Shown here piece after piece: positions 24,696-51,385 of a DNA stretch of 64,000 bases. The DNA lies in assembly GCA_000473305.1 (NCBI GenBank), contig CP006772.1:2237805-2301804 (forward strand). The letters are read 5' to 3'. The stretch's first letter is position 1, and each line of letters begins with the position of its first letter. The notes below the pieces were generated by a model. It was not told where the DNA came from. It saw only the letters and a program-made list of their open reading frames with translations, and did no database searches. The DNA comes from Bacteroidales bacterium CF. GTDB taxonomy: Bacteria > Bacteroidota > Bacteroidia > Bacteroidales > UBA932. A program made the translations under genes and the position numbers.

Positions 24696-24890
24696 ATCAA
24701 TTTCTTATGTTAGTGAATATTCACTTTGCAAATTTAAATCAAAATTATTGAACAATCCAAATAATTTTTGAGAATTCTATAACATCTTGTTTTTCTGTGC
24801 TTTAAATACTGTTTCTAAGTATTGTATGCAATATCATCCTTATTCGAAAAGTAACTTTATTGGGGTGACTAATTGTGGGGTGGCAGAATT

Positions 24891-24953
24891 GCACTCTTTG
24901 GCAAAGCTTTGGTTAATTCGCGTTGGCTTGTGGGGCTTTGGCAATGTGTGCAA
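24891..24953 (+). repeat. bracket motif copy M2 (5' side of the efflux cassette)
   Basis: GCACTCTTTGGCAAAGCTTTGGTTAATTCGCGTTGGCTTGTGGGGCTTTGGCAATGTGTGCAA. Confidence 0.6.
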
Positions 24954-25051
24954 TTTGGGTTGGTTTTCAATTCATGGCTCAATATTTAACAGTCGTATTG
25001 TCAAATAATATTGTCTCACTTAAGTTTAAGTTTTCTTTTTTTACACTTGGT

Positions 25052-25179
25052 GGTAACGGTTGCGTGTAGCAGCAGTAAGGGATTGCGGGCGACTTACCTG
25101 TCCACCACCACAGAAGTTTGAGCGGGGCGGAATGCTTCATTTACCACTGAAACCCTTATTGCTGCTACACTTTGTTACC
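25052..25179 (-). other. attC-like site (about 128 bp)
   Basis: GGTAACGG|TTGCGTGTAGCAGCAGTAAGGG...CCCTTATTGCTGCTACAC TTTGTTACC. Clear outer inverted repeats. Confidence 0.7.
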
Positions 25180-25323
25180 AACTGGCCTTCTTTCTTGTCA
25201 AGCGATATACCTTTTTGTTTATCAACTATTTCTATCATTTCGTTTTTGTCTGTCGGATTGTGTATCAGCAAAGTTTTATTTTTTAAGTGGGATATTTCTT
25301 GTTTTTTCGGGTGGGCAAAGCAA

Positions 25324-25382
25324 GCTCTTTTGCAAACTTTGGTTTGCGGGTTGGCTTTGAGCGGTTTGCAAATGTGCTTGCT
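25324..25382 (+). repeat. bracket motif copy M3 (3' side of the six-gene cassette)
   Basis: GCTCTTTTGCAAACTTTGGTTTGCGGGTTGGCTTTGAGCGGTTTGCAAATGTGCTTGC. Confidence 0.55.
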
Positions 25383-25399
25383 TTGCGTCCGGGTTCATA

Positions 25400-26374
25400 T
25401 TAGTTAAACTTTCCTGTGATTTGTGAAATATCAAATTTGCCGTCAATGTTTTGGATTTCGATTTTTCCATTCAGAATATCGAAGAAGAAATCGCGAATAC
25501 GGTCGAAGGTCAAAATAGCGGGCTTTCCGTCTTTTCCAGTACCCATATCGTAAGTTTTCAGCAGTTGTAAGCCGAGCGAGGCAGCTGTCAAAAGAAAATG
25601 ATTTTGAAACTTATCGGTATCCAACAAGTCGGCTGCCAACACTTTACCGATTACAGTGTAACTGCGCAACGTTTTCTGAATTTCCTCATTGGTGAGCGTA
25701 GTTTTTACCTCATCGGTAGTAATATTCATTTCAATTTTACCTGAATTTTGCGCCTGTGGAAGTCCTTTGTAGAGTGCGCCCAAGTCAGCCAAACTCAAAT
25801 TGTAAAGCCTTGCATCGGCGGTAGCAATCATCGGCTCAATTGAAAACGCACTCGGCAAAAGCAAGGAAATACTGCCTTCTACCCGCACCGACGGCGTGTT
25901 GAACGTGCCGACAAGGCTGTTTTTGAGGTCGATTTGCTGCGTAGCAAACACACCGCCAACCACTATACTGTTTTCCAACACGACATCATCTGCATAAATG
26001 CTGCCCGCCACAAAAGCATTGTAAAGCGCTACACTCTTGGCGTTTATATCGGAATGGAAAACGAGTTTGGCGTTTCCTGCCCGCGAAACAAGGCTGTTTG
26101 CCGAGCCAACGCTCTTTTTGAACGCAATATTGCCTTTTGCCTCGCTGTTGACATAAAGTTCCAATTGCGTGAAAACAGCACCTTGAATTTCGAGGTCGCC
26201 GTTTTGGATTTCTAACTTGTGGGCATAAACCGGTCCTTCAACTACCGCATTGCCCTGCACTGTAATAGTGCGATTGAGTTCCGCGGCCTTTTCGGGCAAA
26301 ATAGAGCCGCGCACCAGGTTGTCTTTCAATTGTATGTTGCTTTCGTTAAAACGAAGTTCTTTTAACTCTTTCAT
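25400..26374 (-). CDS. bactofilin-like (polymer-forming beta-helical) protein with a C-terminal extension
   Basis: 324 aa. Residues ~40-175 are repetitive hydrophobic/Gly beta-helix repeats (..GNAVVEGPVYAHKLEIQNGDLEIQGAVF..VVLENSIVVGGVFATQQIDLKNSLVGTF..). Confidence 0.5.
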   Translation of the reverse strand: MKELKELRFNESNIQLKDNLVRGSILPEKAAELNRTITVQGNAVVEGPVYAHKLEIQNGDLEIQGAVFTQLELYVNSEAKGNIAFKKSVGSANSLVSRAGNAKLVFHSDINAKSVALYNAFVAGSIYADDVVLENSIVVGGVFATQQIDLKNSLVGTFNTPSVRVEGSISLLLPSAFSIEPMIATADARLYNLSLADLGALYKGLPQAQNSGKIEMNITTDEVKTTLTNEEIQKTLRSYTVIGKVLAADLLDTDKFQNHFLLTAASLGLQLLKTYDMGTGKDGKPAILTFDRIRDFFFDILNGKIEIQNIDGKFDISQITGKFN

Positions 26375-26393
26375 TGTGATATTATTTTTATGA

Positions 26394-27428
26394 TTAAACT
26401 GATTTTATTGAGCTGAAATTTAGCATTTTAACAATATTTTCCCGCACACGATTTGTGTGTGTATCGCCTGTGGAATAACGATTGCTGACTTCCGCGTTGA
26501 AATAACGCCCGATTTTCTCGGCATTGTCTTTGGAAACGTTTCCCCAAGTTTTTGCCTGAAAATCAGAAATCATTTCGTTTGCCTGCATTTTTGGCAAAAA
26601 ATCGGCTTGATACAGATTTTTGTCAATCTGACTTTTTTCGTTTTGCGTTTCGATAAAGCAGACAGGCGAATACTGCACGGCTACAACGCTCTCGTTCAGA
26701 ACGGTTTGATTGATTGTGTCGTTCAAGCGTTTCTGTTTCACGAGAAAAGTATTTGCCTTGCCGATAGTGTCAAACGCGCGTTTTTTGGCAATAGAGGCAG
26801 AAAGTCGCACCTGTAAATCGCCGCTCTCCGCGCCAAAAACGGCCACAGTACTTGCCAAATCGCCTGTCAAGGTGCGTCCTGCATGCTTGTCGCTCTGATT
26901 TTTGAAGACGAAAGCAGGCTTGTCCAATTCGTAAATACGGTTGGAAAGTTCGTTGTCCAAGTCCTCAAAAATTTTCAGGTAACGGCTCGAAATACGCTGA
27001 TAGTCGCCTTGCATCTGCGTTTGTTTTTCCACACAACGTTTTGCCATTGAGTGCAGGTGTGCCAAATGGGAATCTAAACGGCTCGAAAGTTCTGCAATCT
27101 GCTGGCTGATTTCAGAGCGAATTGTTTTGAAAAAACCTTCTACAATGGTACTACCCACTTTCTTTGCGTTGCTGTCGATAGATACAATTTGTGCCGTTTC
27201 GGTAGCAACGACTGCACCAGTGAGAACATTTACAGAATTGTTACAATTCGCTACACTATTGTCGAAAGGAGTTGTTTCAACATCAATATTTACCTGTACA
27301 TCTTCGTAAGCCGTACCGCTGTATGGTACACTTCCGCTATATGGTTTTCCATCTACAGAACCAGAATAACTGACTCGACCCGAATAGTGAACTGCTATTT
27401 GTTTATGAAAATTTTGTCTATAACTCAT
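26394..27428 (-). CDS. hypothetical coiled-coil protein (paralog A)
   Basis: 344 aa. Shares a conserved central block with 27425..28351 (FFKTIRSEISQQIAEL..SSRYLKIFEDLDNELSNRIYELDKP). Confidence 0.6.
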   Translation of the reverse strand: MSYRQNFHKQIAVHYSGRVSYSGSVDGKPYSGSVPYSGTAYEDVQVNIDVETTPFDNSVANCNNSVNVLTGAVVATETAQIVSIDSNAKKVGSTIVEGFFKTIRSEISQQIAELSSRLDSHLAHLHSMAKRCVEKQTQMQGDYQRISSRYLKIFEDLDNELSNRIYELDKPAFVFKNQSDKHAGRTLTGDLASTVAVFGAESGDLQVRLSASIAKKRAFDTIGKANTFLVKQKRLNDTINQTVLNESVVAVQYSPVCFIETQNEKSQIDKNLYQADFLPKMQANEMISDFQAKTWGNVSKDNAEKIGRYFNAEVSNRYSTGDTHTNRVRENIVKMLNFSSIKSV

Positions 27429-28351
27429 AATTGTTCGTTTTTAAGGGTTTGAAAATTATTAGCCATAAACAGTTTGTTAGCCATATCTTTTACCCGCTGC
27501 GAACTGCCCGAATTAGAAAGATATTTGCTGAACTCGCTTTTTACCTCCTTGTCGATTTCTTTTGACGGTTGCCACTCAATATTTTCAATATTGGAATTAA
27601 CCGTGTTTTTAATGGTTGATTGAGTTTGTTTGCTCAACTGTGCATTATTTAATTGAATATCAATATTTTTGCTGTCGAATTTATCAAAATTACACTCTGA
27701 AATTACCACAGGAACGGACAGGGTAGAATTTTCAACATTGCCTTTTTCAAGCAAAATTCTGTCAGTCAATTTTTTCTGTTCCGACATATCGGCAAGAAAG
27801 TTTGTCATTGAGTTGATAACTCTCAAACCTCGAAATTTTACATTCGAGGCAATGATCTTCTGACTTGCCGCCAGCGATTCGAGTTGCGAAACAGGGACGG
27901 TTGCCGTCAGGTATTTTGTACGGTTAGATACCTTTTCCAATTCTTTAACTGCAAAATCGACAGTTGGTTTATCCAATTCAAAAATTCGCTGTTTCAGATT
28001 TTGATTCAATCCGTTGAAAAGTTTCAGATAACGAGAGGAAATCATATTATAGTCGCGTTCCATTCTGCCGCGTATTGCCAAAAGTTGCTTTTTTTGTGCG
28101 TTGAGCTGCATTAAATGCGAATCGACATCGCTTTGCAGTTTGGCTATTTTCTGCGAAATTTGAGAACGTATAAGCGTGTAAAAGCCTTTATTTACGTTGT
28201 CGCAAACGTGGTCGGCGGCTTTCTTTTCTGCCAAAACTACGGCAGTTTGCATTGCTACAACCGCAGTTGTAGTCCCCTTGATATGATTGGACACTGAATG
28301 AATTTCCTGTGCCATCGGGTTGGTATCTACTACGCAATCTATATATGCCAT
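27425..28351 (-). CDS. hypothetical coiled-coil protein (paralog B)
   Basis: 308 aa, paralogous to 26394..27428 (FYTLIRSQISQKIAKL..SSRYLKLFNGLNQNLKQRIFELDKP). Overlapping start and stop. Confidence 0.6.
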   Translation of the reverse strand: MAYIDCVVDTNPMAQEIHSVSNHIKGTTTAVVAMQTAVVLAEKKAADHVCDNVNKGFYTLIRSQISQKIAKLQSDVDSHLMQLNAQKKQLLAIRGRMERDYNMISSRYLKLFNGLNQNLKQRIFELDKPTVDFAVKELEKVSNRTKYLTATVPVSQLESLAASQKIIASNVKFRGLRVINSMTNFLADMSEQKKLTDRILLEKGNVENSTLSVPVVISECNFDKFDSKNIDIQLNNAQLSKQTQSTIKNTVNSNIENIEWQPSKEIDKEVKSEFSKYLSNSGSSQRVKDMANKLFMANNFQTLKNEQL

Positions 28352-28355
28352 AATC

Positions 28356-30614
28356 TTAAATTTTTATTTCGTTATCATTATCAAATTCGCCCTGATTTTC
28401 AAGAATATCGTCGATTGCCTGCTCGCGATCGAATTCGTCTGCATCGTATTCCAAACCGAGTTCGTCAAGAATTTGCTGTAAAGACTCATCGTCCAAGTCG
28501 TTCAACTCATCTTTGGAATATTGATATTCTTCGGTTTCGTCATCCTCTTCTTGTTCTTCGTCTTCAGAAACTTCTTCCTCTTCTTCGTTGTCGTCTTCAT
28601 CCTGTTCTTCGTCTTCAGAAAGTTCATCCTCTTGAATTTCGGAATCGTCTTCTGTAAGTTCTTCTTCGGAAATTACTGCCTGTTCTACAACAATTTCCTC
28701 ATCTGCTTGCTCGTCCTCCGCCTCTTCGTTCAGGAGATTCCGACCTTCGTCGGAATAACCGTCGAATGGAGTTTCTTCTTCGCGTTCTTTCAGGTTTTCC
28801 AACGCATTTTTGGCAATAATCGGCAAATTGAGTGCGATATGCTCAAAAGTAATGTCTTCTACATTGGGCGTAGGTGGCAATTCCGAAGATTTAGCAAACA
28901 GCGGATTAACCAAAGCCAAAGGCTTACGGCGGTCGTTGAGGTCACGTACTTCATCGGCGGCAACTGCCACTTCATTGGAATACCCATCGCGAAGTTTTGC
29001 ATCGTAATATTCGATATGTCCAAATTTATCGGCTTTCTGGTCAATATCTTCTTTGAGACGTTCCATATAATCTTCAAAATCCGATTGAGTCCGCTTAAAT
29101 TCGTTTGACTGCATTTCGAATGCAATTAATGTTTCGGCAGCATTATCAACCACATCAACAACGGTGCTGTCAAGGTTACCCTCCGACTGTACCATAGTAT
29201 CTTCGGTGCGTTGCAACGAAACCAAGGTATTATAGGCAGCCACATATTCCTGCAAACTTTTTCCCATATCTCGAATAATATCAGCGGCTTCGGCACGGTT
29301 GCGACCATAAAAATCTTCGCAGTTTTCGTGCCAACGATTCAGATACTCAATTTTTTGGTCTTTGATATGATTGTAAATTTTAAGGCGTTCAATGCGGTTT
29401 TCAGCCATAAGATTTTGAACAACAGGTGTAACGATTTCCTCGTAAATCTGGTGTACGCCAAAAGGCAAATTGGTTGTGCTGCCATCTTCCGCCGTCCACA
29501 TTCCCGAAACGAGATTATATTTTACCCGCGAACTCTGTTTGAGTTGGAAAGGCTCGTATCCCTGCACCGATTCGGTATAATCGAACTTCTCGTTGCGGAT
29601 ACGTTCGATTTCTTCGTGCTCCAAAAGCGGAGAATAGTGATTGTAAGGCGATTTGAGAATTTGATACAAAACTTTGTTCGATTCAAAAATTATTTTATCG
29701 GTAGAAGCTACCTTCAAGGCAGAAATTGCTTGTACAGAATTTGCCATTGTGATCATTAGCCCCTTCAAAACGTCCTCAAACTGTTGTGTTTTGTTCGACA
29801 ATGAATCTTTTAACCTATTAAGTTCCTGAAATTTATTTACACTACCCGCATATTTTTCCTTGTTGAAAACAGGAATAACCGGTGCGTTTTCAGGAATTTC
29901 CGTAGTCGCAAATTCATTTAGAAATTGTAGATATTCGCATTTATCGGCAACTAATGGTAACGATACCGAAGTGGTATCCAAGTCGTCCATACAGTAAGAA
30001 ATGGTTCGCAGAGAGCGTTCCAATTTGCCGAAATAATCGTGCTGGTTGATTTCTTGAATAGAAGTAGAATACTCATCTGTTTCAATGGTTTCCGTGTCTT
30101 GCGAGGTTTCCACAATCGGAGCTTCCGACGACAAATTTTCAAGGTCAGCGATTGTTTCAATGAGCAAATCGTTTTGCCGCGAAAGTTGCAATGTAATTTC
30201 CGACTCATTAACCTTGCCTGTGTAATCGACAATGAAACTTTTGTCTTCGTACTTGATTTGGTCGGCAATGGGAACATAAGCCACGCCCAACTTGCTCACT
30301 TTGTAGTCGCGGAAAATCTCGCTGTGCTGCTTTTTAAATTCGGCAATGCGCGTGTCTTTGTCCGCAATCTGTTTCCCCAACCCGCTCTTTTTTATGAAAT
30401 ACACAAAGAACAGAATGATTGTGAGAAACCAAACCCACAACTTGGAAATTTCTGTCTGCAACGCCGTTTTTTCTTCTTCGAGAACGGCAATTTGCTTTTC
30501 AATTCGTTCCTCTTCGGCAACGATTTTTTCAGCCGCCTGGCTGTAATAGTTGAACAATATCTTCGCCTGGTCTTGATAGACATTGTTCGATTCTGGAAAA
30601 ATTTTACCTGTCAT
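28356..30614 (-). CDS. large hypothetical protein with an N-terminal TM helix and a poly-acidic C-terminal tail
   Basis: 752 aa with one TM near residue 60 and a coiled-coil N-terminal region. The last ~130 aa are about 50% D/E. Confidence 0.6.
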   Translation of the reverse strand: MTGKIFPESNNVYQDQAKILFNYYSQAAEKIVAEEERIEKQIAVLEEEKTALQTEISKLWVWFLTIILFFVYFIKKSGLGKQIADKDTRIAEFKKQHSEIFRDYKVSKLGVAYVPIADQIKYEDKSFIVDYTGKVNESEITLQLSRQNDLLIETIADLENLSSEAPIVETSQDTETIETDEYSTSIQEINQHDYFGKLERSLRTISYCMDDLDTTSVSLPLVADKCEYLQFLNEFATTEIPENAPVIPVFNKEKYAGSVNKFQELNRLKDSLSNKTQQFEDVLKGLMITMANSVQAISALKVASTDKIIFESNKVLYQILKSPYNHYSPLLEHEEIERIRNEKFDYTESVQGYEPFQLKQSSRVKYNLVSGMWTAEDGSTTNLPFGVHQIYEEIVTPVVQNLMAENRIERLKIYNHIKDQKIEYLNRWHENCEDFYGRNRAEAADIIRDMGKSLQEYVAAYNTLVSLQRTEDTMVQSEGNLDSTVVDVVDNAAETLIAFEMQSNEFKRTQSDFEDYMERLKEDIDQKADKFGHIEYYDAKLRDGYSNEVAVAADEVRDLNDRRKPLALVNPLFAKSSELPPTPNVEDITFEHIALNLPIIAKNALENLKEREEETPFDGYSDEGRNLLNEEAEDEQADEEIVVEQAVISEEELTEDDSEIQEDELSEDEEQDEDDNEEEEEVSEDEEQEEDDETEEYQYSKDELNDLDDESLQQILDELGLEYDADEFDREQAIDDILENQGEFDNDNEIKI

Positions 30615-30633
30615 GATTTTTATGATTTTAGAT

Positions 30634-31344
30634 TTAGTTTGAATAAATACTCTTTCTGATTTGATAAATTCTTTCTGCTTTTTTAAGATTGCTACCGATT
30701 GCCTCCTCGTTCATCGAATAATTGGAAATTGCAAACGCAATATCGTTGATAACACGAATAAATTGCTGTTCCAAACCATGCGCCTCTGCATTTTCGGTTG
30801 GTGAAATAAACCGCAAGCTGTCTTCAAGTGTATTTATTTTGCGAATAAAATATTCGGGCAAGTTCGGCAAATCGTTCATTTTGTCTTTCAAATCGCGTAT
30901 TGCCGTTTTCATTTCATTAATACCGTTACGGTTAAATGTTTCCTGCTGATACACTTCCTGAACTTTGTCGCCCGAATGAAGTGAAGCAACAAGCCCCAAA
31001 ATCAAGAAGAAAAGCAAAACGCAATGAATAATTATTTGCAGGGCAAACGACCATTCACAAGCAAGATTTCCAACAAGCATTACGGCAATAGCCGCAATAG
31101 CGTAAAGCCATGTAAAAAGCCAACGCACGCCAAGCGAGCCAACTTTTTTACCCTGTTTGTCGTTCAAATTAATCCACGGAACAAGAATGTCGAGAAAAAA
31201 CAGTCCGTAAATGACAGACGAAACCACGATATTCAGCACGAGAACATCAGGTGCCAGGCTGCCGCGAAACAGTATAAATGCAGCAATAATAATTGCCTCT
31301 CCGCCAAGCAGCACAATAAATGATACTATTTTCTTTGTGTCCAT
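30634..31344 (-). CDS. hypothetical membrane protein (4 TM) with a cytoplasmic C-terminal domain
   Basis: 236 aa with four hydrophobic helices followed by a soluble domain. Confidence 0.55.
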   Translation of the reverse strand: MDTKKIVSFIVLLGGEAIIIAAFILFRGSLAPDVLVLNIVVSSVIYGLFFLDILVPWINLNDKQGKKVGSLGVRWLFTWLYAIAAIAVMLVGNLACEWSFALQIIIHCVLLFFLILGLVASLHSGDKVQEVYQQETFNRNGINEMKTAIRDLKDKMNDLPNLPEYFIRKINTLEDSLRFISPTENAEAHGLEQQFIRVINDIAFAISNYSMNEEAIGSNLKKAERIYQIRKSIYSN

Positions 31345-31367
31345 AATTTGTAATTTTTAATTCGTAA

Positions 31368-32633
31368 TTATCTCTTGTTTCCGCATTTTGGGCAAAATTT
31401 CACACTCGGAGGTAATGTTGTTCCGCAACGGCTGCAACTGTCACCGGAAGAAACCTGTTTTCCGCAGTTTCCGCAGAAAGTTGCGCCCGCCATCATTGGC
31501 GCGTTACAATGCAGACAGTTTCCGCCACCCGATTGCAACGGTGTTCCGCAACTTACGCAACGTTTGGCGTTTTTATCATTGTCCGTTCCGCATTTGGGGC
31601 AAGGGTTGTATTCATCGCCACAATGAGGACAAAAACGGGTTGTACTGGGGAACTTTTTGGCGCAGTTGGAACAATACACCATTTTAACCTGTTGTTGCGG
31701 CTCTTGATTAAAATTGCCGCCTTGCTGATTATTCCCGCCAAAATTAGGCTGATTGAATTGCGGGTTCATCATTCCACTACCAACAGCGCCGCCGCCGCCC
31801 ATTCCTCCCATCATATTCATTGCCATCAAGCCGCCTATCAGTCCGCCGTTGCCGTTGCCGAAACCATCTACGGCATTGTTGGCGGTATTGAACATCTGTT
31901 CCTGCTGCCAAGTGTGCCCTGTAATTGACATCGACGCTTGCGTTGCAATGGCTTCCGCTACCTTTCTGCCTTCTTCTGTGGATTTATCAATATCAATCGT
32001 TGTAATATTAAATTGCAACAATTCCAAACCCAAGTTGCCCCAAAATGGATTTAGAACACCTTTTAAATATTCAGATAATTCGTCTAAATAAGCAGATAAA
32101 TACTTAAAACCGACATGGTGTTTAATCACATATTGCGCAATTTGCGACTTGGTTTTTGTTGAAAATTCACCGAAAAACTGATTTGTCAAATCGTCCTGCG
32201 TAAATTCTGTTTTTGTTCCGACAGATTTTATCAGGAATTTTTCCGCATCATTCACTTTCAACCCGTAGCGACCGCCTGCGACAAGCGGCAGTTGCGTGTT
32301 GTAATCGGGGTCGTGAATCGGCATTTTGCTTACCGCCCAATCAATGCTGAACGTTTGAATTTTGTTTACAAACCACACCTCCGCCGTAAACGGATTTTTC
32401 CCACCGAAAGGGATTCCGAACAGCGATCGCAAAATCGGCAAGTTTTCGGTGTTTAAGGTGTGTTTCCCCGGACCGAATTTACCTACAACCTGCCCTTTTG
32501 AGAACAATACCGCTTCTTGTGATTCCTGCACAACGAGTTGCGTGTAGGTACTCAAATTAGTTTCGGGGAAACGCCAAGCGTAAATGGTTTTAGTCCCCTG
32601 CGGCGACCATCTGACTAAATCAATTATTGCCAT
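31368..32633 (-). CDS. SPFH/Band-7 family protein with a Gly/Met-rich linker and C-terminal tandem zinc ribbons (COG4260/YdjI-like)
   Basis: 421 aa. The N-terminus MAIIDLVRW..GTKTIYAWRFP is typical of the Band_7_1 SPFH family. The C-terminus carries repeated CxxC...CxxC ribbons (CSNCAKKF..CPHCG, CPKCG..CVSCG, CLHCN..CGNCG, CSRCG..CPKCG). Confidence 0.7.
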   Translation of the reverse strand: MAIIDLVRWSPQGTKTIYAWRFPETNLSTYTQLVVQESQEAVLFSKGQVVGKFGPGKHTLNTENLPILRSLFGIPFGGKNPFTAEVWFVNKIQTFSIDWAVSKMPIHDPDYNTQLPLVAGGRYGLKVNDAEKFLIKSVGTKTEFTQDDLTNQFFGEFSTKTKSQIAQYVIKHHVGFKYLSAYLDELSEYLKGVLNPFWGNLGLELLQFNITTIDIDKSTEEGRKVAEAIATQASMSITGHTWQQEQMFNTANNAVDGFGNGNGGLIGGLMAMNMMGGMGGGGAVGSGMMNPQFNQPNFGGNNQQGGNFNQEPQQQVKMVYCSNCAKKFPSTTRFCPHCGDEYNPCPKCGTDNDKNAKRCVSCGTPLQSGGGNCLHCNAPMMAGATFCGNCGKQVSSGDSCSRCGTTLPPSVKFCPKCGNKR

Positions 32634-32694
32634 AACTTTTTGATTTTAAAGTTTTTATTTGTAAATTTATTCTTTTCGTGCAAAGGGAAAAATG

Positions 32695-32750
32695 GCTCTT
32701 TGACTTTTGCGAAACGTTGACTTGTGTGTTGGGCAAAAGGTAATGTGCCA
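32695..32750 (+). repeat. bracket motif copy M4 (degenerate; 5' side of the six-gene cassette)
   Basis: GCTCTTTGACTTTTGCGAAACGTTGACTTGTGTGTTGGGCAAAAGGTAATGTGCC. Recognisable but diverged. Confidence 0.4.
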
Positions 32751-32914
32751 TTTTTGTGGTGGATTCTAAAAACAAAAAATGCAGGTCGGCAAAAAATAAA
32801 ACTTTATCGGGTCGGCTGGTGTGGTCGGCAGTCATTCCGATTGGTCTTTCTTTTCTGTATTCGTATGTCGTCTTGTCAATTTTCATGTCGCTGTCTTTTT
32901 TCCTTAGGCTTGTT

Positions 32915-33292
32915 GGTAACGGTTTCGGGTGTAGTTCGGCCACCCTGTCCTCTTGCAAACCCATTGCCTCCGGTGGCTGAACTATACCTGGTGTTATAAC
33001 CAGCTTCGATTTCAGTACAAGATCAAATCGCCTTTGGTTCACGGTTTTGCCTTATAAAGATAGAAACTTTATTTATTTAGTTGAACACAGATTATCCTAA
33101 AAATCAACGAACAAACACAATATTTACACTAAGGGTTAAATCAGATACGAATTGAATCGCAAAACCTGTGACAAAGGCGCGGTAATATTATTGAAAGTAG
33201 AAAAGAGACTTCGAAACTTAAATACACCCTCTTAAAGCAAAAATCAGATAATCGGCACACATTTCAGCCTTTACAACTTTTCTTTAGTTGGT
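32915..33292 (-). repeat. non-coding cassette type 1 (attC-A 32915-33000 + NC1 about 292 bp)
   Basis: attC-A is GGTAACGG|TTTCGGGTGTAGTTCGGCCACC...GGTGGCTGAACTATACC TGGTGTTATAAC. The NC1 body has no ORF beyond spurious ones. One of 8 near-identical copies. Confidence 0.7.
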
Positions 33293-33581
33293 TATAACGT
33301 TTCGGCGGCTGAGCCCGTTTTAATGGGCGTAGACGCCTGTTATGGGTCGGTTGCGTTATTGGTTGGTTGTTTTATTTATTTTGCATTAACTTCTATATCA
33401 TTAACTTTCTCTAAAAATACTCGTCAACTCGGCTGCCTTTCTTCTTATGCAAATGACCGTGTATATTCCGGAGCATCGTGACCCCCATTCCGTTTTCATC
33501 TTGACCCCCCATTCCGGACGATCGTGACCCCTTAGTTAACCTGTTTTGATTAAGTTTGAGTAACACTCAAATCGATCAGAC

Positions 33582-35135
33582 ATGGCAGGAAAAACTTTGG
33601 AAATGAATACAGTTCAACAGGTAGGGTTAATGTATCGGCAAGGAGTCGGAATCAAGGCCATTGCAAGGAATTTATCATTAAGCAAGAATACCGTAAAGAA
33701 GTACCTTCGTGAGATGGAGCTAATCAACTCCACACAAGAAGAAGGAGATTGCCGTACAGATATTGATCTCGCATCAAATGAAGAGCACCCGGATGAATGT
33801 AAGAGCCGTTTAGATATACTGCAGGAATATTTTCCTGATTACGGTAACTTATTGAAACAGCCAGGCATGACACTTCAAGTGCTGTGGCAGAGATACAAAG
33901 AGATTCATAAAGACGGATATGAATACTCTCAGTTCTGTTATCATTATCAAAAATATAATGTCACCCGTCAGGCAGTGATGCACTTTGAGCATGAGTATGG
34001 AGACCGTTTGTACCTGGATTTTGCCGGCAAAAAAGTCTCTTATGTCGAACAAGGAACAGGAGAGATCATTGATTGTGAGTTTTTTGTTGCCGTACAGGGT
34101 GGTAGTCAGGAGACATATGCCCAAGCCTGCCTAAGCCAACAGAAAGCTGATTTTATCGAGTGTGTTCAGGATGCCTTGTTTTATTACGGAGGGGTTCCCA
34201 AGGTATTGATCCCGGATAATTTGAAGAGTGCTGTAACCAAAGCCAGCAGATATGACCCTACCCTAAACGAGGACTTCCTTTCCATGGCCAACCATTACCA
34301 ATGTACGGTCATGCCAGCCAGAAGCCTCAAACCACGCGACAAGAGCCTTGTGGAACGGCATGTTTCCATTCTCTATACCCGGGTATTCACAAAGCTCCAT
34401 GGGCGTACATTCTTCTCTCTTCACGAGTTGAATGAGGCTATCGGTAAATACGTGGAAGAGCATAACAATATGCTTTTCCAGGGCAAGGAGTATAGCCGAA
34501 GGATACTGTTCGACACGTATGAAAAGGAGGCCCTTTCACCACTGCCGGCCACCCGTTTTGAGCTTAAAGATTTTGTATTTGCGACAGTCATGAAAAACTG
34601 TCACGTCCAATACCGTGTTGACAAGCACTATTATAGTGTCCCTTATCGCTATATCGGAGAAAAAGTCAAGGTTGCCGTGGGTGCATCAACAGTGGAAATC
34701 TACCTCAAAAACAACCGCATTGCGCTTCACGCCAGAGATCGCAGACCCTATAAGTACACCAGCGTAAAAGACCACCTTCCTTCCGGGCATCAATACGTAA
34801 GTGAGTGGAATCCTGATAAGTTTATACAGTGGGGAGAAAGGATAGATCCATCAGTTAGTGAATATATACGCAAGATACTGGATCGTCCGGCCTATCCGGA
34901 GACTCTTTACAGAGGCTGTTCGGGAATACTTCAATTTGAGAAGAAAGCAGGGAAGTCACGTCTTGTTGCGGCCTGTAAACTTGGCTTGCATCTTCAATCA
35001 TACAGCTATACGTTCATTCAGGGAGTCTTATCCCGTAATACCGAATCCATAGAGATAGAGGAAGCCGAAACAACCATCGAAGTGGAACATGAAAATATAC
35101 GGGGAAATGCTTACTATCAATCATTATTTAACTAA
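33582..35135 (+). CDS. istA: IS21-family transposase IstA
   Basis: 517 aa with an HTH and a DDE core. Homologous to but clearly divergent from 8881..10440. Confidence 0.9.
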   Translation: MAGKTLEMNTVQQVGLMYRQGVGIKAIARNLSLSKNTVKKYLREMELINSTQEEGDCRTDIDLASNEEHPDECKSRLDILQEYFPDYGNLLKQPGMTLQVLWQRYKEIHKDGYEYSQFCYHYQKYNVTRQAVMHFEHEYGDRLYLDFAGKKVSYVEQGTGEIIDCEFFVAVQGGSQETYAQACLSQQKADFIECVQDALFYYGGVPKVLIPDNLKSAVTKASRYDPTLNEDFLSMANHYQCTVMPARSLKPRDKSLVERHVSILYTRVFTKLHGRTFFSLHELNEAIGKYVEEHNNMLFQGKEYSRRILFDTYEKEALSPLPATRFELKDFVFATVMKNCHVQYRVDKHYYSVPYRYIGEKVKVAVGASTVEIYLKNNRIALHARDRRPYKYTSVKDHLPSGHQYVSEWNPDKFIQWGERIDPSVSEYIRKILDRPAYPETLYRGCSGILQFEKKAGKSRLVAACKLGLHLQSYSYTFIQGVLSRNTESIEIEEAETTIEVEHENIRGNAYYQSLFN

Positions 35136-35147
35136 ACATCACCGCCT

Positions 35148-35870
35148 ATGAATCAGAACACATTGGAACAACTGCATGCCATGAAACTATTTGGCATGGC
35201 CAACTCTTTCAAGGCTCTCATCGAGAGTCATTCCCTGGAACAATATACCCATGACCAGATGGTTGCAGCCTTAGTGCAGGCAGAGTGGGAAGGACGGGAA
35301 CACAAGAAGATAGCACACAACATAAGTCAGGCAAAGTTCCGTTACACTGCCTCCATCGAAGAGATAGATTACACCTATCCCCGAAATCTGGACAAGAATC
35401 AGATGCTCCGTTTCACAGACTGCTCATACATAAAGAATGCTGAAAACATACTGGTGTCGGGAGCTACCGGGGTTGGGAAGAGCTATATAATATCAGCCCT
35501 TGGATATCAGGCCTGTATAATGGGATATAAAGTTGGTTATTACAATCTGCAAAAACTATTGACAGCACTTCGTATAGCAAAAGCGGACGGGTCTTATCTA
35601 AAAACACTCAGTAGGATAGAAAAACAGGACCTTCTTATCTTAGACGATTATGGGCTGCAGCCTCTCGATAATAATGCCTGTATAAATCTTTTGGAGCTTA
35701 TCGAGGACAGATATGGAAGACGTGCAACTATCATGTCCTCACAGCTTCCCTTTGACAAGTGGTATGACATCTGCACGGCTAAGACAATCGCCGATGCAAT
35801 CTTTGACAGACTAATAAACGGTTCTCACAAAATCCAATTGAAAGGGGAATCAATGAGAAAAAAAAGATAA
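35148..35870 (+). CDS. istB: IS21-family helper ATPase IstB
   Basis: 240 aa with Walker A GATGVGKSYI. Confidence 0.9.
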   Translation: MNQNTLEQLHAMKLFGMANSFKALIESHSLEQYTHDQMVAALVQAEWEGREHKKIAHNISQAKFRYTASIEEIDYTYPRNLDKNQMLRFTDCSYIKNAENILVSGATGVGKSYIISALGYQACIMGYKVGYYNLQKLLTALRIAKADGSYLKTLSRIEKQDLLILDDYGLQPLDNNACINLLELIEDRYGRRATIMSSQLPFDKWYDICTAKTIADAIFDRLINGSHKIQLKGESMRKKR

Positions 35871-36071
35871 CTTTGTTTGACATGTTTTGATCAATCAAAA
35901 CATGGTTGACCTTCGGGTTGCCCTTCGGAGTACGGAGGGGTCACAATCATCCCGGAATGGGGGTCAACATCGCCGGAATAAACAGACCGGTACTTTTTGC
36001 TCTTAGACAGATACTTTATATTCTAATCTTCTCTCTTTTTCTTCTGCCGTATTGGTTCCCGCAACTGACCC

Positions 36072-36320
36072 ATTAACGTTTCGGCGGCTGAGCCCGTTTT
36101 AATGGGCGTAGACGCCTGTTATGGGTCGGTTGCGTTATTGGTTGGTTGTTTTATTTATTTTGCATTAACTTCTATATCATTAACTCTCTCTAAAAATACT
36201 CGTCAACTCGGCTGCCTTTCTTCTTATGCAAATGACCGGTACTTTTTGCTCTTAGACAGATACTTTATATTCTAATCTTCTCTCTTTTTCTTCTGCCGTA
36301 TTGGTTCCCGCAACTGACCC
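36072..36320 (-). repeat. non-coding cassette type 2 (attC-B 36072-36134 + NC2 185 bp), intact copy
   Basis: Near-identical to the copies at 46151, 58579 and 60561. Confidence 0.7.
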
Positions 36321-36448
36321 ATTAACGTTCGCAGCTATGCGCAGTGCGGGATTGCGTGGCTACGTCTGTATCAACTGAGACAAACCTTGCCTGCGGGAAC
36401 TGAACTTGCAAAACCTATGAAACCCGCATTGCGTATGAGCTGTTGTTG
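36321..36448 (-). other. attC-like site (about 128 bp)
   Basis: CATTAACG|TTCGCAGCTATGCGCAGTGCGGG...CCCGCATTGCGTATGAGCTG TTGTTG. Outer inverted repeats. Confidence 0.65.
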
Positions 36449-36546
36449 AACTAAATCCCTCCGGGATAGTTTTCAACGAATAAAATTAAGCATAAAATCT
36501 GATTTGATGATCTTTACGGCAGTACAAATTAAAAAAGTAATGCCAT

Positions 36547-37449
36547 ATGAGAAAAAAGTCAGGATCAACCATTATCGAGAGGGCTCTGGATTGTGTGCCG
36601 GGATTCGACCGTGTCTTCCAGAAGCTCCAGCAGCAGGTGGTTTTGCGGGGTCAAAGCAAAAGCACCCTCAACAACTACATCCGCCGTGTAGCTGCAATAT
36701 CACTACATTTCGGGAGATTGCCGGAATTAATCGCAGATGAGGAGATCAACGAGTATCTAACTGCCCTGGCCCTGTCTGCAAAATCACCATCCAGAAGTAA
36801 TTTTAAACATTCCGTTTATGGGCTACGCTATTATTATAGGCTGCTTGGTCAGAACAAACGGGCGATCTCTCTTCCCTCCCTAAAGAAGGACGCCAGGTTG
36901 CCTGTCATATTTAATCGTGCGGAACTAAAGGAATTATTCAAGGCACCCTCACTGCTAAAACACCGCATAGTATTGACCCTGATCTATTCTGCCGGACTAC
37001 GCGGCCAGGAGGTCATTAATCTAAAACTTGCCGATATAGACTTTGAACGCAAGACCATACATATCCGACAAAGCAAGTATAAAAAGGACCGTATTGTCCC
37101 TCTTTCCGGATATATGTCTGATGGGTTGAAAAAGTATATTGCAGCAGAGAATCCTGTTCTATGGCTGTTCAACGGAAAAGAACCGGATGGTCGCTACAGT
37201 GTCCGGGGACTCTCGTGGGTAATGAGGGAGACGCTAAAAAAGACCTCAATCAAAAAGGATGTCAACCTCCATTCACTCAGGCACAGCTATGCAACGCACC
37301 TCCTCGAAGACGGGCTGAACATCGTCACCCTAAAGGAGCTCCTGGGCCATGCCGAGATCACCACCACGATGATCTACCTTCATGTGGCACAATGCCCGCT
37401 TATAAAGCCCCACAGCCCGCTGGACACACTGTATGGCGACAGGAAATGA
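36547..37449 (+). CDS. tyrosine recombinase (phage-integrase family), IS91-associated
   Basis: 300 aa with a C-terminal catalytic region (HSLRHSYATHLLEDGLNIVTLKELLGHAEITTTMIYLHV). Its stop overlaps the start (ATGA) of the IS91-family transposase. Lacks the extra IntI-specific insertion, so it is not an integron integrase. Confidence 0.8.
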   Translation: MRKKSGSTIIERALDCVPGFDRVFQKLQQQVVLRGQSKSTLNNYIRRVAAISLHFGRLPELIADEEINEYLTALALSAKSPSRSNFKHSVYGLRYYYRLLGQNKRAISLPSLKKDARLPVIFNRAELKELFKAPSLLKHRIVLTLIYSAGLRGQEVINLKLADIDFERKTIHIRQSKYKKDRIVPLSGYMSDGLKKYIAAENPVLWLFNGKEPDGRYSVRGLSWVMRETLKKTSIKKDVNLHSLRHSYATHLLEDGLNIVTLKELLGHAEITTTMIYLHVAQCPLIKPHSPLDTLYGDRK

Positions 37450-38012
37450 GCCGCCCTCAACACGAAGTCGCGGAGGTGATAAAGCTTTTTGGTCAACGGT
37501 TTTGTGAAGAGTGCCAGCCAAACGGGTATCAGAAACGGGTACTCAATGCCCTTTCGCTATGCCGCTCTCCTGCCCTTGGCGGTCACAAGGAAAAGTGCGA
37601 TTGCTGTGCAAAGGAGAGGATCAGCTACAACAGCTGCCGCAACCGTCATTGTCCGAAGTGCCAGGGTTCGAAACAGGCTTTCTGGGTCGAAGATCTTCTG
37701 GAAGCTACCCTGCAGGTAAAACATTACCACATCGTCTTTACAGTACCGCACGAGCTGAACCATATTTGCCTGCTAGACAGCAAATGGTTCTACGAGAAGT
37801 TGTTTGCAAGCGTATGGGAAACAATCCAACAATTTGGATATAATCGGTATGGAGTTGAAAGCGGTGCTGTCTGTGTGTAAGCATTCGACAAAACCCCTCT
37901 TTCCTATTTCTACAAAACAAACGTTCTTGCAGAGTTTGGACAATTTAGCCCATCTTGGTCAAAAGCTAACTGTTAGATAAAAAGGATGTTGAGTTACTGT
38001 GTAAAACTACGT

Positions 38013-39590
38013 TCAATCCATTTTAGACGAATCAGGACTCATTAGTGATTCTGGATGTTGCTCGATCCATTTGTCGGGCATCAGTGAATCAAGGCTCTCT
38101 TTTTTGTCAAGGACATAGGGTAATTGGTTCAAGACATCTATAAGGTAATGCCGGGTATTAATGTTTTGTTCCCTGCAACATCCTGTGAGAGTAAAAATCA
38201 TGGCTGCATTAAAAGCCGCATTGTGATTCCCGCAAAAAAGAAAATTTTTCCGTGAAACGGTAACCGGTCTGATTGCATTTTCTGCCGGATTGTTGTCTAT
38301 TTTCAGGTTGCCGTCATAAATATACCTGCTAAGCCCCTGGATTCTGCTGTAATTGTATGACATCGCCTTACCTATCTTGCTTTTTGGCAGTACCGTCTTA
38401 TAGTTTTGCTCTATCCATTTTTCCAGATTCCTTATTATGGGCAAGGCCAACCTTTGCCTTTCTGCTTCTATCTGGACAGGGGAGTATTGCTTATCTTTGA
38501 AGACCCTTTCAAGTTTGTACAGCAGTTGTATCTGCCCCAATGCGTACTGGGCCAGTGTTTTGTTCTCTACTAACGAAGATTCATAATTTCGACGACAGTG
38601 TGCCCAGCAGTTAATGAGCGTTACGGAAGGATTCTTGTCAAAAATCTCGTATGCGCAATAGCCATCTGTCTGGAGTGTACCTTTGAAGTCCTTGAAGATT
38701 TCGCGGACAACTTTAGCGGAGCGGGAACCGTCCCGGTAATCAAAAAACAGGAGTTTTTCTTTCACCGCCCGTGCCATCCAAAGATACTCCTTGTCGGCTT
38801 TCTTCTTTTCCCGGTTTATTACAGGCAACGTGGTTTCGTCCGCCTGTAGGTAATTAGAAGACAGCACCCTTTCCCTGATTTTTTCATACAAGGGTTTGAT
38901 CAGGCCACAGGAAGAGGCAAACCAGTCGTTTATTGTGGTTGCAGATAGCTTAAGGCCTAGTTCCTTGAACTGTTTGGTTTGTCTGTAAAAAGGAAGGTGG
39001 TGGACATACTTTTGCAACAACAACTCTGCAATCAAGGTGGACCCCGCCGATCCTTTGTATATTGGGAGCAATGGCATCGGGGCTATAATAATGGCAGGCA
39101 TGTCCCCGACAGTGTTGGTTTGGTTTATTAAAGCGTATTTTGGCCGTACGATGTCCAGTACAAACAGTTTGCCCGGCTCAAATTCTATGACTTTGGTATG
39201 CTCTTCTCCGATCCTCCTGTATTTGGTCAAATCTATGTCATTGGGTTCAATCACGCTTTCGACAACCGGCAACCCTTCCATTGATTCTTGTCTCGGTTTG
39301 CGAGGTTTGACCTTCTGCTGTATCATTACTTGTTCAAGCTCCTGTTCACTTGCTTTGCTGTCAGCCAGGGAGTCGATTTGGTCTGAAAGCTCGGCAAAAA
39401 GGCCTGGAAGAGGGGTGATATTAGGATATTTTTCGCTTATTGAACCGAACATCTTACGTTTGAACCATGCCAGTTGGGAAAGGAGTTCATTGAGCTGTTT
39501 TTGCAACTCAGCCAATTGTTGGTCCTTTTGCTTCTCCCTCTCGAGAGATGCTTCCAGCATACTTATTAATGATGAAATTGATTGGTCCAC
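38013..39590 (-). CDS. IS66-family transposase (TnpC)
   Basis: 525 aa with an N-terminal leucine zipper, a DDE core and the CWAHCRR motif. Confidence 0.85.
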   Translation of the reverse strand: MDQSISSLISMLEASLEREKQKDQQLAELQKQLNELLSQLAWFKRKMFGSISEKYPNITPLPGLFAELSDQIDSLADSKASEQELEQVMIQQKVKPRKPRQESMEGLPVVESVIEPNDIDLTKYRRIGEEHTKVIEFEPGKLFVLDIVRPKYALINQTNTVGDMPAIIIAPMPLLPIYKGSAGSTLIAELLLQKYVHHLPFYRQTKQFKELGLKLSATTINDWFASSCGLIKPLYEKIRERVLSSNYLQADETTLPVINREKKKADKEYLWMARAVKEKLLFFDYRDGSRSAKVVREIFKDFKGTLQTDGYCAYEIFDKNPSVTLINCWAHCRRNYESSLVENKTLAQYALGQIQLLYKLERVFKDKQYSPVQIEAERQRLALPIIRNLEKWIEQNYKTVLPKSKIGKAMSYNYSRIQGLSRYIYDGNLKIDNNPAENAIRPVTVSRKNFLFCGNHNAAFNAAMIFTLTGCCREQNINTRHYLIDVLNQLPYVLDKKESLDSLMPDKWIEQHPESLMSPDSSKMD

Positions 39591-39660
39591 TTACTGCTTT
39601 TTGTATATATAAAAGTAGTAAATATCAGCTTAATAAGCAAGTAAAATAAGTGTTTTTTAG

Positions 39661-40020
39661 TTAAAAAGATGATAGTATTTTAAGCCTTTTCCTTCGTGAG
39701 AAAACATCCTCTTTTATACCCTCGACCATCATGACAAGGTCCTTCCACTCCATGGGAAATGAGTTACTCTCATTGTCATAATTTGGTAGTAAAAAAGTCC
39801 CTTGTTCCAGCTTCTTTATGTACAGGACAAGACCACCACGCTCTGCATGGAGTAGTTTGATGGTGTCCTTTTTCTTATTAATAAAAATATAAACATCTCC
39901 ACTACGAACATCCTGTTTCATGTTGTTCTTGACAACACCACTGAGAGTGTAGAATGATTTCCTCATATCCGTTGCGCCTGGACAAAGGTAGTAGCGCATT
40001 GAATCATTAAGGCTGAACAT
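39661..40020 (-). CDS. IS66 Orf2 (TnpB accessory protein)
   Basis: 119 aa, typical IS66 Orf2 (..DMRKSFYTLSGVV..GDVYIFINKKKDTIKLL..). Confidence 0.8.
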   Translation of the reverse strand: MFSLNDSMRYYLCPGATDMRKSFYTLSGVVKNNMKQDVRSGDVYIFINKKKDTIKLLHAERGGLVLYIKKLEQGTFLLPNYDNESNSFPMEWKDLVMMVEGIKEDVFSRRKRLKILSSF

Positions 40021-40023
40021 AGA

Positions 40024-40392
40024 CTAAAACTGATTTAGTAATGTCTTGAAAACATCAAGGTCAATGATTCCCCGCATCTTTATCTGCAGACCAGTAGGGT
40101 GGACTATCTCCAACTCCATCGATGACCTGATGCCTGGCTGTTCCGGACTAACGATATCCTGACCTACCTCATTTGCTGTATTGCCTATGAGCATTATTGG
40201 TGATAAATGAGATGTGCTCTTATGCCCCCTGATGTCTGATCCGTCTCCCCATTTTCGTAACCAATAATAAAACGAGGACTTGGTATATCCGTATGTTTTG
40301 CAAAAATCCTCCTTAGTAAGTCCGCTGGCCTTATATTCCATGTAAATCTCTTTGAATTTTGACTCTTGCATGCGGGTTGAATATTTTCTCAT
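40024..40392 (-). CDS. IS66 Orf1 (TnpA, HTH)
   Basis: 122 aa with a helix-turn-helix (FCKTYGYTKSSFYYWLRKW). Confidence 0.75.
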   Translation of the reverse strand: MRKYSTRMQESKFKEIYMEYKASGLTKEDFCKTYGYTKSSFYYWLRKWGDGSDIRGHKSTSHLSPIMLIGNTANEVGQDIVSPEQPGIRSSMELEIVHPTGLQIKMRGIIDLDVFKTLLNQF

Positions 40393-41486
40393 AGTTTTTG
40401 CCCAAAGGTAAAACCTATGGAATACCGTTACAATATGTATTCGCTCGAATACTTACGTCTGTGTCCTTCACACATGGGGACAGAATCTCAGTTTTCATCC
40501 TCACATCCATTGCATTGTCCCTGCCGTGGGAGAATCATTTGCAGGAAACATGAAATACATAGGCAGCGGGGGAAAGTACCTTTACCCGGAAAGACAGTTG
40601 AGTGCCGTGTTCCGTGGAAAGCTGATGCAGAGCATCGCGGCCCGGTTGGGACGCGATGGATTACCACAAGATGTCCGAACTGTTATGAAAGACCTCTGGA
40701 ACAAGGCTTGGGTTGTTCATTGTGAGCCATCTATGGCAAGGCCGGAACATGTGATCCGATATCTGGGGCAATACACTCACAGGGTGGCAATCACAAACCA
40801 GCGGATAATTGACATCAATGACCGGAATGTGACATTCATGCACAAGGATTACGCCGACGGCGCAAGACAGAAACCAATATCCCTCGATGGCGTGGAGTTC
40901 CTCAGAAGGTTCTGCATGCATATCCTCCCACACAGGTTCGTCAAGATAAGACGATACGGTATATACAGCAGCCGGGTAAGGGCTTTAAAGAAGAGTCTGG
41001 AAAATCCTAAGATGACCATAAATGTCGGGGCTACAGAAAGTGTGCAACAGAGGTTGAAACGGCTTACCGGCTTTGACATCTGCCTGTGTCCGTTTTGCAA
41101 GCTGGGAAAAATGCACAGGATAGAAGAGGTACCCAGGGTGCGTTCTCCTACTATTATGTATTCACAGGCGGGTGCCGGACAAATATAAAATCAGGAGACT
41201 ATTTTGCAATCTGCATTTTTTTGTGGATGGCCTTGCTCTTGTCCGGAGCAGACAACAATCCGGAAAATGTTGACACTTCAGAAAATTATAAATCTTGAGT
41301 GCCTGGAATCCTGCAAAAAAACACGTATCCAAAGTATGACATTGAGGGATTGCCTGCCTGCTTTATCCCATAAAATATAAAACCGGAAACCTGAAATCCG
41401 TTGATAAGTCCATAGCTAAACTGTCCGGGATGTAGTTCAACATGGACTTCAAGTTCGGCATTGCATGCCACATAAAGTCCTATTTA

Positions 41487-41894
41487 TTAGCGGTAGTTAT
41501 TTATCAATTCATTAATGGAGTCAGCAATCTTCACAAGTCCACCTGTTTCATGTAACCAAAGAAAGATTTCATCATTCAACTGTTTTCCATTATTCTTATC
41601 TATCAATAAAACAAGGTAATCTCCGCATCCATTACTAGCAATTGAGATGGCACTTTCAGGAAAGTCATCCCATTCTTTTGCTTGTTTAGTTTCATGAATA
41701 ATATGATTGCAAGTTCTACTAATTCTCTTATTATCCGTCTTATCAAAAAAAGGAAATAGTTGCCAATCATCTTCATCTGTTTGGATTTCTCCTCCATTTT
41801 CAAGCATCATCTTTTGTTTGAAAATGTCCGGGAAAAATAGTCCTAATTCCTTTTCAGTATCTTGAATGAATTTTAAATCAACCGGGAATGGCAT
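41487..41894 (-). CDS. SMI1/KNR4 (SUKH-1) family immunity-type protein
   Basis: 135 aa. ..SIASNGCGDYLVLLIDKNNGK..IFLWLHETG.. is typical of SUKH-1 proteins. Confidence 0.6.
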   Translation of the reverse strand: MPFPVDLKFIQDTEKELGLFFPDIFKQKMMLENGGEIQTDEDDWQLFPFFDKTDNKRISRTCNHIIHETKQAKEWDDFPESAISIASNGCGDYLVLLIDKNNGKQLNDEIFLWLHETGGLVKIADSINELINNYR

Positions 41895-45726: not shown

Positions 45727-45773
45727 ATTTTTTCAAATTTATCATTTCGAGCTCTGTCTTTTTTAGGGTGAAG

Positions 45774-46756: not shown

Positions 46757-46770
46757 CGACTGTGGGATGG

Positions 46771-48959: not shown

Positions 48960-48960
48960 A

Positions 48961-51375: not shown

Positions 51376-51385
51376 AAATCAACAA

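Follow-up and report, generated by a model that had tools for sequence, protein, structure and literature searches.

A 64,000-nt stretch of the Bacteroidales bacterium CF chromosome (contig CP006772.1, positions 2,237,805 to 2,301,804; hereafter the window) carries a long cassette array in which two short non-coding units, NC1 and NC2, recur between the gene cassettes. There is little doubt that NC1 and NC2 are integron cassettes that are bounded by attC recombination sites and contain no gene. The fuller picture, in which these gene-less cassettes were amplified by integrase-type recombination and possibly feed transcription into the cassettes downstream of them, is probable.

Cassette identity and attC breakpoints

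A repeat search combined with self-BLAST of the window recovered the repeats that an initial annotation of this DNA had reported, in numbers far beyond chance: the 21-nt NC1 core matched eight times in the window, with no match expected. The NC1 cassette measures 378 nt and is present in seven copies plus one chimeric relative, while the NC2 cassette measures 249 nt and is present in five copies plus one relative that is ~72% identical. Both are functionally oriented on the minus strand, with the body followed by the cassette's own attC (attC-A in NC1, attC-B in NC2), and the previously described pairing in the order attC-A, NC1, attC-B, NC2 occurs four times. All units are listed below, with coordinates given on the plus strand.

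8531–11634, minus strand: chimeric NC1 relative, consisting of the NC1 5' module, a 56-codon gene fragment, the NC1 3' module and a different short attC
32920–33297, minus strand: NC1, body and attC-A (32918–32995); upstream of a 7.8-kb SPFH/zinc-ribbon cassette
33298–36076, minus strand: NC2, interrupted; attC-B at the low end, split by the insertion sequence IS21b (33460–35984) with a 5-bp target duplication, GACCG
36077–36325, minus strand: NC2, intact; in tandem with the interrupted copy 33298–36076
45779–46156, minus strand: NC1, upstream of a UvrD/GajB-like helicase cassette; identical to 58207–58584
46157–46405, minus strand: NC2, identical to 58585–58833
54750–54997, minus strand: NC2 relative, diverged (~72%); attC-B conserved, with a perfect R'/R'' match (GTTATGG/CCATAAC); upstream of an 8.3-kb two-component/TonB-receptor cassette
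55800–56177, minus strand: NC1, full copy
57828–58206, minus strand: NC1, attC-A variant GGACCGCGGGTATAGTA; upstream of a cassette encoding a 181-aa protein and an Mrr type IV restriction enzyme
58207–58584, minus strand: NC1, in tandem with NC1 57828–58206
58585–58833, minus strand: NC2, identical to 46157–46405
60189–60566, minus strand: NC1, attC-A variant; 27 nt upstream of the start codon of an MFS transporter cassette
60567–60815, minus strand: NC2, full copy
61585–61963, minus strand: NC1, the most divergent full copy (87.5–92% identical); upstream of a cassette starting with a DUF805b RNA motif

When the copies were aligned together with their flanks, the limits of the conserved unit were sharp (left, ..yAAC|GG; right, GGTTATAAC|G), with the breakpoint of NC units falling precisely at ..AAC|G at either end. 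An attC site is recognized by two inverse core boxes, R'' (..AAC) and R' (GTT..), that end an imperfect palindrome of 57–141 nt. Sites of this kind were called with a stem-based finder; earlier finders relying on 7-nt box pairing and on DNA energy parameters proved overly strict and failed to detect most of them. The stem-based scan yielded ~26 hairpin sites bounded by AAC...GTT, with overall lengths of about 56–135 nt; they include a long class of ~123 nt behind gene cassettes, attC-A (~80 nt) and attC-B (~60 nt). The AAC and GTT do not vary among 24 long sites, attC-A and attC-B. The attC of the SUKH cassette (41432–41487) is unusually short (~56 nt), has CGCTAAT instead of ..AAC as its inner box, and overlaps the stop codon. 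Sites of the long class are:

36326–36449, minus strand: example of the ~123-nt class that bounds gene cassettes
13263, 15492, 25055, 41948, 46404, 54996, 56176, 58832, 60814, 61962 and 63563: other sites of the ~123-nt class

When 24 long sites, taken from the window and from related loci, were aligned, TAAC/GTTA proved invariant and a 19-bp stem was predicted, with compensatory changes in 18 of 24 predicted stem pairs. The plus strand folds better in every attC site examined. Moreover, a G.T wobble is kept on this strand in 22 of 24 sites at columns 26/112 and in 11 of 24 at columns 21/118, two positions that would be C x A mismatches on the other strand. This points to the plus strand as the one that folds, the bottom strand that minus-strand cassettes should have. 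The unpaired spacer differs in length between its two sides, with 4–5 nt on the 5' side versus 1–2 nt on the 3' side. As a side observation, the G.T wobbles may mark the recombining strand in this lineage, replacing extrahelical bases.

Cassette identity was also assessed by a rule that requires the opening bases of a cassette to read as the reverse complement of the bases after GTT in its own attC inner box. At distinct non-NC cassettes, 11 of 12 junctions matched at 4/4 nt beyond GTT; NC1 and the NC2 relative matched equally at 4/4 nt, and NC2 itself matched apart from a 1-nt indel. Such agreement between first bases and own inner box is what recombination of circular cassettes at G|TT leaves behind. 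Together with the absence of a credible open reading frame (ORF) from the NC bodies (below), these breakpoints and boxes bear out the earlier description of the units as attC-bounded, ORF-less cassettes. Representative junction pairs are:

GTTaggca (58953) versus gcctAAC (60187)
GTTAGCG versus cgctAAC (57826)
GTTGTGTG versus acacAAC (55798)
GTTagcct versus ggctAAC (45777)
GTTaccaa versus tggtAAC (32918)
GTTaccac versus tggtAAC (25055)

Divergence, assortment and spread of the NC cassettes

Pairwise identity among the NC1 copies of the window ranges from 87.5 to 100%, and among the NC2 copies from 90 to 100% (the relative at 54750 excepted, as noted above). The sole exact duplicate is an NC2+NC1 doublet, in which 45779–46405 equals 58207–58833. 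The initial annotation had taken near-identity of all copies as a sign of recent duplication, which holds for this one doublet; the remaining copies differ by 4–12%, and thus the NC family is not the product of one recent burst, the rest being older. Neighbor order varies (NC2>NC1, NC1>NC2, NC1>NC1, NC2>NC2 and NC>gene), from which it follows that NC1 and NC2 assort independently. This agrees with the earlier proposal of cassette duplication or re-insertion, in which the units behaved as independent modules.

Among species-representative genomes, the NC1 core was found only in the Rikenellaceae metagenome-assembled genome (MAG) 7L_34 and the Bacteroidia MAG INTA.CYC.071, and it was also found in six metagenome contigs; NC2 is represented among these genomes and contigs as well. 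These external loci were retrieved with a pattern that lies inside a 37-nt invariant block of the NC1 body. The external copies share 93–97% identity with those of the window and are without exception located in attC arrays, in support of the cassette reading given in the initial annotation. In MAG 7L_34, NC1 (locus L005) and NC2 (locus L007) are the first cassettes of two separate arrays, whose ends (L005 3788–3870 and L007 3299–3380) share the junction AAC|TTrTTTATAGAT...TTGATT.ATAT.AT. Judging from its sequence, this junction resembles an attI-type insertion point for the first array position.

Amplification by site-specific copy-and-paste recombination is very likely, by analogy with the established integron mechanism. 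A cassette circle would be excised at G|TT from one daughter duplex and re-inserted, giving a net duplication; the accepted explanation of duplicated cassettes is that attC recombination is resolved by replication (PMC3458562). Such moves would sometimes involve single cassettes and, at least once, an NC2+NC1 doublet. Excision becomes less frequent as cassettes lengthen and where the attC is long and folds poorly (PMC5371416). No cassettes in the array are smaller than NC1 and NC2, which are also among the few with a short attC; under the same mechanism, being small and having short attC hairpins that fold easily should give them a mobility advantage, and they would be mobilized most often. 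This advantage would let NC cassettes fill about half of the slots and would be a sufficient explanation for their number.

The array unit between 8531 and 11634 had been regarded as a disrupted NC1 copy. It is indeed related to NC1, but it is actually a chimeric cassette with a gene fragment, in which an NC1 5' module (11469–11634) and a 65-nt NC1 3' module (8617–8681) flank the 56 codons, followed by an attC at about 8531–8610. Its 5' module is 99% identical to that of the copy at 61583, in line with the variant previously noted as common to the copies at 11440 and 61583. The gene fragment is interrupted by IS21a (8721–11283; target duplication GATTTCTG), and an intact chimera without the insertion sequence (IS) is present in an ENA metagenome (locus L015, 520–1085). 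The 56-codon ORF shares 73% identity with the C-terminal part of a product of 86 aa encoded in another array (locus L017, 915–1508), itself apparently the tail of a ~190-aa gene split by a stop codon. Since NC1 modules surround a gene-fragment ORF in this sister cassette, its sequence suggests that NC1 descended from a gene cassette by gene loss.

The initial annotation had also held that both IS21 elements chose NC units as targets. This was not upheld: IS21b interrupts an NC2 body in the window, the same element (99.3% identical) occupies an attC-A loop in locus L006 and a non-NC cassette in locus L010, and IS21a lies in the gene fragment, outside NC1-homologous DNA. The sites fit insertion tolerance in non-coding cassettes better than targeting.

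An origin of the units as miniature inverted-repeat transposable elements (MITEs) or IS fragments, or their copying by homologous recombination or segmental duplication instead of attC recombination, is extremely improbable. The array is admittedly rich in IS elements, repeats of 90–100% identity could support exchange, and the mosaic module shared by the copies at 11440 and 61583 suggests that some exchange occurred. Nevertheless, every copy ends exactly at the attC G|TT crossover with a matched R'/R'' pair, its neighbors differ from copy to copy on both sides, and the units have no associated transposase family. The two ends of a unit do not form inverted repeats, and neither target duplications nor a surrounding IS were found, so that the reading as MITEs or parts of a larger IS, which the initial annotation had named as the outcome that would overturn its proposal, is rejected in favor of attC recombination.

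Content of the NC bodies and a possible promoter role

No credible ORF of at least 20 aa was found in the NC bodies, the longest confined to the NC1 body being 39 aa. Mechanical ORFs of 57–69 aa that run through attC sequence were not considered credible, nor was a 69–73-aa frame leading via attC-A into the next cassette, whose start codon and residues vary freely between copies. Rfam gave no relevant match for the whole window at the gathering threshold or for one NC1-NC2 unit at E ≤ 10. Furthermore, the NC1 and NC2 bodies folded on neither strand into RNA more stable than that of shuffled sequences (z-scores of −0.29 to −0.85). The conserved RNA structure that had been suggested for inspection is thus not apparent.

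These results bear on the possibility of a small regulatory RNA, sense or antisense, encoded by NC1 and/or NC2 and acting on other cassettes. Small RNA-bearing integron cassettes occur in Xanthomonas. In NC1, an antisense −7-like box (TATTATTG, 5/6 positions) adjoins the invariant block, and a short hairpin with some compensatory changes among copies lies just after it. Against this stand the fold scores at shuffle level, the lack of an Rfam match even at E = 10, the absence of a convincing intrinsic terminator (two terminator-like stems are at background level), and the lack of a target complementary to the invariant block elsewhere in the window. An RNA gene in these bodies is therefore very unlikely.

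The most likely function, that of a promoter in NC1, and perhaps in NC2, for promoterless downstream cassettes, is put forward tentatively on the analogy of gene-less cassettes in other integrons; transcription would be fed into the cassette immediately downstream. Three points favor it. First, several gene cassettes directly downstream of NC1 have short leaders of only about 15–35 nt (the MFS, 181-aa/Mrr and helicase cassettes in the window, and genes in loci L005 and L010), which leave no room for a promoter of their own. Second, the NC1 body contains a 37-nt invariant block:

46018–46054, minus strand: invariant block of the NC1 body, 37 nt, TTCAATAATATTACCGCGCCTTTGTCACAGGTTTTGC, sense positions 104–140

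The block is unchanged in seven of seven NC1 copies of the window and differs by one change in the chimera; it occurs nowhere else in the window. Its conservation equals that of the attC arm (permutation p = 0.019, window copies only); a value of p = 0.00075 obtained with all copies was discarded as biased because the external loci had been fished with a pattern inside the block. Third, most gene-less Vibrio cassettes have sense promoter activity, and in the same work in silico promoter prediction proved unreliable (PMC11014356).

Several observations weigh against the combined picture of integrase-driven amplification and promoter function. A sigma-70 scan remained at background, with 2 sites versus 2.4 expected. 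The Bacteroidota promoter elements (−33 TTTG and −7 TAnnTTTG) have no good match in NC1 or, read by eye only, in NC2. The stretches of NC1 that had been described as resembling TTTG...TAnnTTTG, and for which promoter prediction had been proposed, stand only as weak matches: NC1 contains one-mismatch −7 boxes (TGGGTTTG and TATCTTTA in sense, and the antisense box given above), whose −33 elements are poor or variable, and other candidates have the wrong spacing. The invariant run itself is modest evidence, and a gene cassette follows NC1 only somewhat more often than the composition of the array predicts. As for recombination, the attC sites examined, including the 24-site alignment, have no consistent bulged (extrahelical) bases. 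Lastly, tblastn with IntI1 as the probe detected no integron integrase in the window or in 14 loci, apart from an IS91-associated recombinase, and no integrase lies within 4 kb of the L005 array end in the Rikenellaceae MAG.

The same body of evidence can be read as purely selfish or neutral spread, with NC1 and NC2 being decayed remnants of gene cassettes that have no host function and owe their numbers to small size and a short attC. The two amplified families have exactly these two properties, their bodies show no ORF, RNA structure or clear promoter, and the sister cassette with NC1 modules around a gene fragment points to an origin by gene decay. NC1 moreover carries a leader-like TAAAGAAAAG where gene cassettes carry TAAAAAGACA. 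Yet the 37-nt run is invariant amid variable flanks and retained in the chimera, the full length has been kept at 4–12% divergence, which is unexpected for junk DNA under deletion pressure, and, by analogy, most of the gene-less Vibrio cassettes tested were active promoters. On balance, a purely selfish or neutral status appears rather unlikely, and amplification with a possible contribution to transcription is preferred.

The leader just mentioned is shared more widely. Ten of about 12 unrelated gene cassettes start with GTTRnnn, followed by ~8–12 nt, TAAAAAGACA, 4–20 nt and ATG (for example 63535–63562, 60160–60188, 57800–57827, 45727–45778 and 15465–15493), so that the motif stands at a fixed distance from the crossover, and NC1 has the degenerate version given above. 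A Bacteroidota translation signal, or a trace of how these cassettes are made, may underlie it.

Improbable, though worth stating, is a stronger proposal, by which NC2+NC1 would be a dedicated mobile expression module of Bacteroidia integrons or, alternatively, the NC units would be the first clear 'parasitic' cassettes that exploit the integrase. In the former case, a doublet placed before promoterless and even giant cassettes would let a long array without a usable integron promoter (Pc) be expressed, and the 37-nt block would be its control site. In the latter, the integrase would have been exploited to take over half an array.

The surrounding array and known systems

From 63686 down to ~8530, the array comprises ~27 cassettes on one strand; nearly all genes lie on the minus strand. 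NC-type cassettes occupy 14 of the ~27 slots (about 52%: seven NC1, one NC1 chimera, five NC2 and one NC2 relative) and account for only ~7% of the DNA. The gene cassettes have contents typical of such arrays: they encode a PemK/MazF toxin, an Mrr type IV restriction enzyme, a GajB-like UvrD helicase, a SUKH immunity protein, an ADP-ribosylglycohydrolase and an MFS transporter. Cassettes usually measure about 0.5–1 kb; giant multi-gene cassettes with matched R'/R'' boxes were found here at 7.8, 8.3 and 9.5 kb in the window and at 11.6 kb in locus L012:

15494–25056: 9.5-kb cassette with TetR, a cupin and a presumed RND-type efflux operon (three large genes unscanned)
25057–32919: 7.8-kb cassette with the SPFH/zinc-ribbon cluster
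46406–54749: 8.3-kb cassette with a response regulator, a histidine kinase, a beta-propeller protein, a TonB-dependent receptor and an OEP outer-membrane protein
L012 424–12088: 11.6-kb cassette with a 1583-aa protein (weak tubulin/FtsZ-like N-terminal match, below the Pfam cut-off), an aspartyl protease and an SNase-type nuclease

Two further features accompany the gene cassettes. A second hairpin family, which is not attC, lies on the minus strand at 15779–15847, 24887–24955, 25315–25386, 32688–32755 and 46691–46761, in 5' or 3' untranslated parts of large cassettes. Its layout is stem1-GCACAU-stem2-loop (CCGCNCAAAGCCAAC)-stem2'-AAGAGC-stem1', with compensatory changes in 12 of 18 pairs among the five copies, and the copy at 46691–46761 has no Rfam match; from its sequence, a role in termination, as a regulatory RNA or in protein binding is conceivable. 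The other feature is a DUF805b RNA motif (RF02914) at 61484–61518 on the minus strand, which scores 42 bits versus a gathering score of 35.6. It stands at the 5' end of the cassette 60816–61584, which encodes two small proteins (65 aa with three KDSNYRV repeats, and 63 aa), neither of which has a DUF805 domain.

The IS content of the array comprises two IS21-family elements, one IS3, one IS66 and one IS91-type element. The last is a block (36445–41434) composed of a tyrosine recombinase (36547–37449) and an IS91-family transposase (about 37450–37880 and 40526–41188) that is split by the IS66 element (tnpA, tnpB and transposase; 38013–40392). The block has terminal inverted repeats of roughly 23 bp (GTTGAACTAnATCCC..GGGAnAG) and lies antisense between the cassette boxes R' GTTGAAC and R'' GTTCAAC. 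It looks like a cassette or an element inserted exactly at the attC crossover point; GAAC/GTTC is also the target of IS91. Its recombinase, the only tyrosine recombinase in the window, was considered as the integrase of the array and rejected: it scores 156 bits versus the 265-bit TIGR02249 cut-off, lacks the IntI insertion (profile positions about 180–260), has an IS91 transposase as partner and is placed inside the array between matched boxes.

The array reaches both ends of the window and continues beyond 64000 with another NC2 (locus L001); the protein at the window edge was matched only on contigs of at most 2.5 kb, all of which break at NC2. With no intI in the window, the array is by definition a cluster of attC sites lacking an integron integrase (CALIN), or a stretch of a larger chromosomal integron, and intI may lie beyond position 64000. 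Integrons are known in Bacteroidota (PMC8618304), and with a CALIN defined as at least two co-oriented attC sites without intI, the array matches in its co-oriented attC sites and lack of an adjacent intI. It stands apart in running to both ends of a 64-kb window and in containing cassettes of 7.8–11.6 kb. The default spacing for attC clustering in IntegronFinder is 4 kb, which the giant cassettes exceed.

Gene-less cassettes, duplicated cassettes and CALINs have all been described already; what stands out here is the high NC copy number, the recurring NC2-NC1 doublet and the giant neighboring cassettes. MITEs and repetitive extragenic palindromic (REP)-type intergenic repeats are likewise short, non-coding, multi-copy, hairpin-containing and intergenic, but NC1 and NC2 lack terminal inverted repeats and target duplications, end at the attC crossover and are confined to cassette arrays. 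The duplicated cassettes of large chromosomal integrons (Loot et al. 2012, PMC3458562; Loot et al. 2017, PMC5371416) share with the NC families the presence of several copies per array, breakpoints at the attC crossover and the expectation that short cassettes with well-folding attC sites move most. Unlike in those systems, the cassettes with high copy number (8 and 6) are non-coding, and no integrase has been identified in cis.

The closest parallels to NC1 and NC2 are the gene-less promoter cassettes of the Vibrio superintegron (Blanco et al. 2024, PMC11014356) and the ORF-less cassettes of oral Treponema-type integrons (Tansirichaiya et al. 2019, PMC6557892), which are also short and attC-bounded and sit in long arrays whose downstream cassettes lack promoters of their own. 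In both cases, in silico analysis is not a reliable guide to the presence of a promoter. The present families differ in their host (Bacteroidia/Rikenellaceae), in filling about half of the slots with only two families and in the recurring doublet. Moreover, activity was measured for the Vibrio promoter cassettes, while NC1 and NC2 are known here from sequence and match the phylum consensus weakly. How cassettes far from the integron promoter are expressed, and what governs which cassettes multiply, is an old question for which this array provides a clean natural example outside Proteobacteria, with several NC cassettes directly before promoterless genes for a restriction enzyme, a helicase and a transporter. 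If NC1 and NC2 are promoters, the Vibrio result would extend to Bacteroidota; if they are inert, they would exemplify selfish spread at the cassette level, driven by small size and a short attC.

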